DNA of 16,330 bases, taken from positions 1 through 16,330 of the IMG/VR virus record IMGVR_UViG_2684622620_000010; one strand, written 5' to 3'. The DNA is from a virus. Lineage: Duplodnaviria; Heunggongvirae; Uroviricota; Caudoviricetes. Both the position numbers and the translations under genes were made by a program. Within the stretch, counting starts at the first letter, position 1. The number at the start of each line of letters is the position of its first letter. The notes under the pieces are model-generated. The model did no database searches. It saw only the letters and a program-made list of their open reading frames with translations, and was not told where the DNA came from. This document shows positions 12,021-15,020 of this stretch, in pieces.

Positions 12021-15020
<3,000 letters not shown>

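Follow-up and report, generated by a model that had tools for sequence, protein, structure and literature searches.

The window, by which we mean the whole stretch of DNA analyzed here (16,330 nucleotides), carries in order a lambdoid prophage remnant at tRNA-Ser(cga), mtfA, tRNA-Asn and yeeJ, and its two ends coincide exactly with the termini of two identical, directly oriented copies of IS629/IS1203. E. coli APEC20/16 carries essentially the same sequence as the segment between these copies (positions 1311-15020, 13.7 kb), and yeeJ of E. coli K-12 MG1655 lies at the same locus, with the same mtfA and tRNA-Asn genes. With an IS copy on either side, these 13.7 kb have the layout of a composite transposon or of a segment that IS-IS deletion could remove; the outer flanks of the two copies, where target-site duplications would be seen, lie outside the window. 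The features that concern yeeJ and the insertion sequences are given below.

1-1310 (+): second copy of IS629/IS1203, 100% identical to the copy in yeeJ and in the same orientation; context, not part of the yeeJ lesion
12021-12296 (+): 5' remnant ORF of yeeJ, 91 aa, with the signal-peptide region, the first 8 LysM residues, 14 out-of-frame codons and a TGA stop
12250-12252 (+): AAA run with a one-base insertion in codon 77, from the alignment with K-12; the run is AA in K-12 and in most E. coli
12253-15020 (+): body of yeeJ in the +1 frame up to codon 1000, with the rest of LysM, the IAT barrel and the Invasin_D3 and Big_1 domains; no further lesion
15021-16330 (+): complete IS629/IS1203 (IS3 family), 1310 bp, in codon 1000 of yeeJ, recognized by its inverted repeats, Pfam and Rfam
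15021-15069 (+): IS-encoded tail on the yeeJ frame, about 15 residues (16 codons), then a stop
15075-15401: orfA of the IS, 108 aa, Pfam HTH_Tnp_1
15398-16288: orfB of the IS, 296 aa, Pfam rve

In the prophage, the gene of a DnaB-like replicative helicase (1308-2090, minus strand) is cut by the left IS629 copy and only 260 codons of it are left, so the prophage was also degraded by IS629; the same gene is annotated from 5389 to 6780 in the APEC20/16 locus (L004). A small regulator of the cro/cI type (3953-4184, minus strand) carries a frameshift according to the annotation of APEC20/16, whose sequence is essentially the same here, and this is a further sign of a prophage remnant. Two large ORFs, at 6043-8265 (plus strand, 740 aa) and at 2087-3187 (minus strand, 366 aa), gave no Pfam or PADLOC match. 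The 740-aa ORF sits between the immunity region and Gp157/integrase, which in lambdoid prophages is a common place for accessory genes. An 'exonuclease family protein' is named in some RefSeq records of this prophage and may be one of these two ORFs or another one.

YeeJ is a characterized inverse autotransporter (type Ve secretion) that promotes biofilm formation, and its signal sequence was described in the same study (Martinez-Gil et al., 2017; PMC5595812). It was shown experimentally that the LysM segment of K-12 YeeJ binds peptidoglycan, that YeeJ with LysM deleted is still partly functional and, from the design of the delta-LysM primers, that LysM covers approximately residues 70-118 (PMC5595812). 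The initial annotation had named the gene in the window yeeJ, and this identification is supported by 98.2% identity to K-12 yeeJ over nt 1-2999 and by the Pfam families found in it. The order of the parts is that of K-12 YeeJ: a signal peptide, a probable LysM, the IAT barrel and then Invasin_D3 and Big_1 repeats. In the body, Pfam IAT_beta (PF11924) is matched with 380 bits (E = 9e-114, profile positions 2-279 of 279), together with four Big_1 and three Invasin_D3 domains, and the passenger is present only up to codon 1000. Residues 1-77 of the ORF at 12021 align with K-12 YeeJ and include a putative signal sequence, which we read by eye as a basic n-region, a hydrophobic core and an AAA-QG site. 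On the repaired N-terminus Pfam LysM reaches 15.5 bits against a cut-off of 20.9, and the body alone gave no match to it. The window copy differs from K-12 in one added A in codon 77, in an IS629 in codon 1000 and in the loss of a continuous ORF, and the C-terminal repeats and the C-terminal C-type lectin-like domain of K-12 are missing from the window, where the frame enters IS629 at 15021 and stops at 15069.

RefSeq has yeeJ of K-12 and of IAI1 begin at this same ATG (12021), and the frame that begins there reads MATKKRSGEEINDRQILCGMGIKLRRLTAGICLITQLAFPMAAAAQG...PYTLGALE before it runs through the out-of-frame codons to the TGA at 12294-12296. The second frame, which stays open between 12208 and 15069, begins with LQMPIRCPTPLERWK and has no signal peptide; it contains SAQSVAERFGISVAELRKLNQF and reads SAQSVAERFGISVAELRKLNQFRTFARGF from 12253, so the two frames overlap over 88 nt (12208-12296). 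No continuous ORF thus runs from the signal peptide through the barrel into the passenger. Alignment with K-12 MG1655 yeeJ locates the difference in one added A (GGAAATCG vs GGAATCG), the sole gap over these 2999 nt; GAAAT at 12249-12253 stands for GAAT in K-12, and the local reading in the window is ...GGA GCG CTG GAA ATC GGC CCA AAG.... When one A is removed in silico, the result is TLGALESAQSVAERFG, the same as in K-12, and the repaired frame has no stop up to the IS. The translations and the K-12 alignment therefore bear out what the initial annotation had read from the DNA: that the N-terminus with the signal peptide and the body lie in different frames, that the shift occurs in the A-run at 12249-12253 and that one fewer A would fuse GALE|SAQSVAERFG. 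Based on the LysM boundaries of approximately residues 70-118, an insertion in codon 77 is located inside LysM, of which only the first 8 residues remain in the original frame. When 11700-12400 was scanned for promoters and terminators, no signal exceeded the shuffled expectation.

The initial annotation had left it open whether the extra base is a genuine pseudogenization or a homopolymer error. A 61-mer with the extra A, centred on the site, is found exactly in at least 194 of 5426 complete RefSeq E. coli genomes, which come from many laboratories and include IAI1, O103:H2 12009 and O104:H21, O91, O45:H2 and O22:H8 strains. The A-less 61-mer is found exactly in 1191 genomes, including ATCC 8739 and O157:H7 (strain PV15-279), and K-12 is also without the A but differs from the 61-mer at a nearby SNP. 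The 91-aa product is recorded in 372 blocks of public assemblies in a large assembly collection. Around the site, E. coli IAI1 matches the window at 100% over 801 nt (11900-12700); its yeeJ is described by RefSeq as 'frameshifted; incomplete', and RefSeq calls the yeeJ genes with the additional A (hereafter +A) "frameshifted" pseudogenes in both IAI1 and APEC20/16. The extra A is a real inherited allele and not a sequencing error, because the identical three-base run recurs in many independent assemblies; of the two options offered by the initial annotation, genuine pseudogenization stands and the error does not.

Comparison with yeeJ of related genomes, which the initial annotation had suggested, found the added A in IAI1 (ECIAI1_RS10405) and APEC20/16 (QRM67_RS11130), both with the same 5' haplotype as the window, and an A-less gene in K-12, ATCC 8739 and O157:H7. 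In APEC20/16 yeeJ carries the frameshift only, with no IS, whereas the element in IAI1 yeeJ is an IS3 located at gene nt 6598 and not, as in the window, an IS629 at nt 2999. The initial annotation had also considered that homologs might show the same two-frame arrangement as a native start region. Such homologs literally exist, but they belong to one haplotype, whereas K-12, ATCC 8739 and O157:H7 are single-frame; because of this the two-frame form is a derived lesion and not a native start, and the single-frame state, which is found across divergent allele classes, is ancestral.

The +A lineages presumably belong mostly to phylogroup B1 (IAI1, O103:H2, O45:H2, O91:H21 and O104:H21). No published description of this particular yeeJ frameshift was found in a literature search, although RefSeq already annotates it. 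Disruption of yeeJ is frequent in E. coli, and the gene is barely expressed in the laboratory (PMC5595812). Among 96 genomes, Martinez-Gil et al. counted 38 with an intact yeeJ, of which phylogroup B1 contributed only three, and a further 15 in which mutations or deletions disrupt the gene (PMC5595812); in a later survey yeeJ was complete in 35% of 126 genomes (PMC6714894).

We compared 13 +A alleles, from IAI1, ECN24, APEC20/16 and ten further NCBI assemblies. All of them show one gap vs K-12, and over the first ~1.2 kb (~1200 nt) they are 0-1 nt from the window. Over the whole gene they are up to 147 nt apart, with the differences in blocks downstream of ~1.2 kb. The ECN24 allele, for example, has 49 differences from K-12; 45 of them fall within nt 1-2999 and only 4 in the 4078 nt that follow. 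Nonsynonymous and synonymous changes are in a ratio of about 1:1, both among the +A alleles and vs K-12, which speaks neither for nor against continued purifying selection. The clustering of the differences looks typical of recombination or gene conversion between the Ig repeats. When the 1320-nt 5' haplotype, repaired by removal of the A, was compared with all complete genomes, the 60 best matches all spanned 1321 nt and none was exact, which means that all 60 carry the A. As far as can be read from these alignments, the insertion seems to have had a single origin on one 5' haplotype, and among the 60 best matches the pattern points to no switching back of the A.

After removal of the A, nine of the 13 alleles have a fully open frame of 2358 codons with no other lesion. 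The other four, the IAI1 group, have the IS3 at gene nt 6598; this IS3 lies near the 3' end of yeeJ, at the same position in IAI1 and three other assemblies (L001, L015, L019 and L022), and these hits are independent of the IS629 insertion in the window. In the NCBI annotation of ECN24 (L003) and of L016-L023 the gene is split into a 91-aa 'hypothetical protein', pseudogene pieces and an 'Ig-like domain-containing protein' of 891-911 aa. These split gene models in +A genomes are artefacts of annotation that make gene counts too high; past the single shift, no stop breaks the frame.

The second lesion in the window is the insertion sequence itself. The boundary that the initial annotation had placed at 15021 is exact, since the element begins there with TGAACCGCCCCGG, and both of its ends begin with this sequence as terminal inverted repeats. 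Matching copies are named 'IS3-like element IS1203 family transposase' by RefSeq, and IS1203 is an isoform of IS629. In both IS copies an ALIL pseudoknot (Rfam, 121.5 bits) was found at the overlap of orfA and orfB (336-452 and 15356-15472, plus strand). ALIL is a genuine programmed -1 frameshift signal of IS3-family transposases, in contrast to the unprogrammed shift in yeeJ.

The uninterrupted target in APEC20/16 reads ACG GAT AG|C AAC GGG, which places the insertion in codon 1000 of 2358. It had been claimed that the IS removes the C-terminal passenger; the element does interrupt the gene at this codon, but "removes" is too strong a word, as the final base of the IS is also the final base of the window, and the distal 58% of yeeJ may be either deleted or just displaced beyond the element. 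A simple insertion with a 3-bp duplication would give the 3' flank (TAG)CAACGGGACTGC, and distal yeeJ would then be retained. The exact IS629-yeeJ junction is absent from complete E. coli RefSeq genomes, GTDB species representatives and JGI metagenomes, and the eight full-coverage matches to it in complete E. coli genomes all consist of two separated pieces. In the O157 strains 319, 644-PT8 and 180-PT54, IS629/IS1203 is also located in yeeJ, within a few hundred bp of the window site, but at a different insertion point, with the matching pieces ~215 bp further apart than in the window. Because the junction was found in no other genome while the frameshift is widely shared, the IS629 insertion is private to this strain and later than the frameshift.

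Three other explanations for the extra A can be weighed against inherited decay. One is that this record miscounts a homopolymer, through sequencing or assembly, and that yeeJ has an intact 5' end. The difference is indeed one base in the length of a short A run, and the assembly collection has no exact match to the 951-aa product that starts with ATG 12214 and ends in the IS-encoded tail, with its stop at 15069. However, the run has only 3 bases, the 61-mer recurs in the 194 independent complete genomes, the A is present in all 60 best matches to the 5' haplotype, and the 13.7 kb around the site are essentially those of APEC20/16, which has the same A and is annotated as frameshifted. The 194 genomes, APEC20/16 and the 60 matches effectively refute an error, and we give it almost no chance of being correct. 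Another option is that the adhesin is switched on and off by phase variation of the run between AA and AAA. Phase variation is common among surface adhesins, and the species has both states, but slipped-strand mispairing becomes frequent only in runs much longer than 2-3 nt. The +A is moreover tied to one 5' haplotype, with no A-less version among the 60 best matches. A tract of only 3 A with a pattern of descent and not of switching led us to reject this option, and we consider it extremely improbable.

A third hypothesis is that the +A allele is functional, and that a +1 ribosomal frameshift in the 12208-12296 overlap, or transcriptional slippage, restores full-length YeeJ; the site would then serve recoding or regulation and would not be a lesion. 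The downstream frame (2281 codons) is fully open in nine of the 13 +A alleles, and the overlap falls in LysM, whose deletion leaves partial function, so that a few changed residues may be tolerable. In addition, the CUU-GGA pair at 12237-12242 has a loose likeness to a shift-prone codon with a rare codon after it. Yet, on reading 12208-12296 we saw no motif of the prfB type (a stop codon or a +1 shift stimulated by a Shine-Dalgarno sequence), an AAA is far too short for transcriptional slippage, and Rfam is blank at the site although it detected ALIL twice in the same window. The single frame is the ancestral and majority state, the open frames can be explained by recombination, and +A alleles have been hit independently by IS3 in the IAI1 group and by IS629 here, a sign of relaxed selection. 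A programmed frameshift was rejected on the lack of a known motif in the overlap, the lack of an Rfam match and the far commoner single-frame state, and we regard restored full-length YeeJ as very unlikely. It is just as doubtful that the +A allele is maintained because a low level of +1 shifting in the 88-nt overlap yields surface YeeJ with a slightly altered LysM. If this were true, an adhesin gene, yeeJ, would hold a new recoding site.

We are therefore left, with high confidence, with yeeJ in this window as a frameshift pseudogene inherited in its lineage, to which a strain-specific IS629 insertion was added secondarily. An event of this sort is of a known kind, ordinary gene decay, and not a new mechanism. 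In the first lesion the change from AA to AAA in codon 77 would end translation from the native start after 91 residues and leave the LysM, barrel and Ig body in the other frame. Because that body is without a signal peptide, a product that starts internally would stay in the cytoplasm, with no export and no insertion into the outer membrane, and no exported or functional protein would be expected. Premature termination may also lower transcription downstream. The insertion probably arose once on the ~1.2 kb 5' haplotype and would then have been inherited and recombined onto various 3' halves. The second, later lesion is the entry of IS629/IS1203 into codon 1000 in this strain only, which separates the far Ig repeats and the lectin domain at the C-terminus from anything that was still translatable. 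This second hit is consistent with a gene already free of selection. Against reading the allele as a pseudogene one can set the frames that are fully open after repair in nine of the 13 +A alleles, since an old pseudogene might have decayed further, and they are the sole finding that may hint at retained function; we attribute them to a recent insertion and to recombination with intact alleles.

Based on these lesions, the genome should be scored as yeeJ-negative in surveys of adhesin and virulence genes, which often call presence by BLAST coverage alone. The added A in codon 77 is a handy marker of this yeeJ 5' haplotype in many finished E. coli genomes, including STEC. The locus also provides a case in which a dispensable, poorly expressed adhesin gene collects successive and independent hits, a frameshift and then IS3 or IS629.
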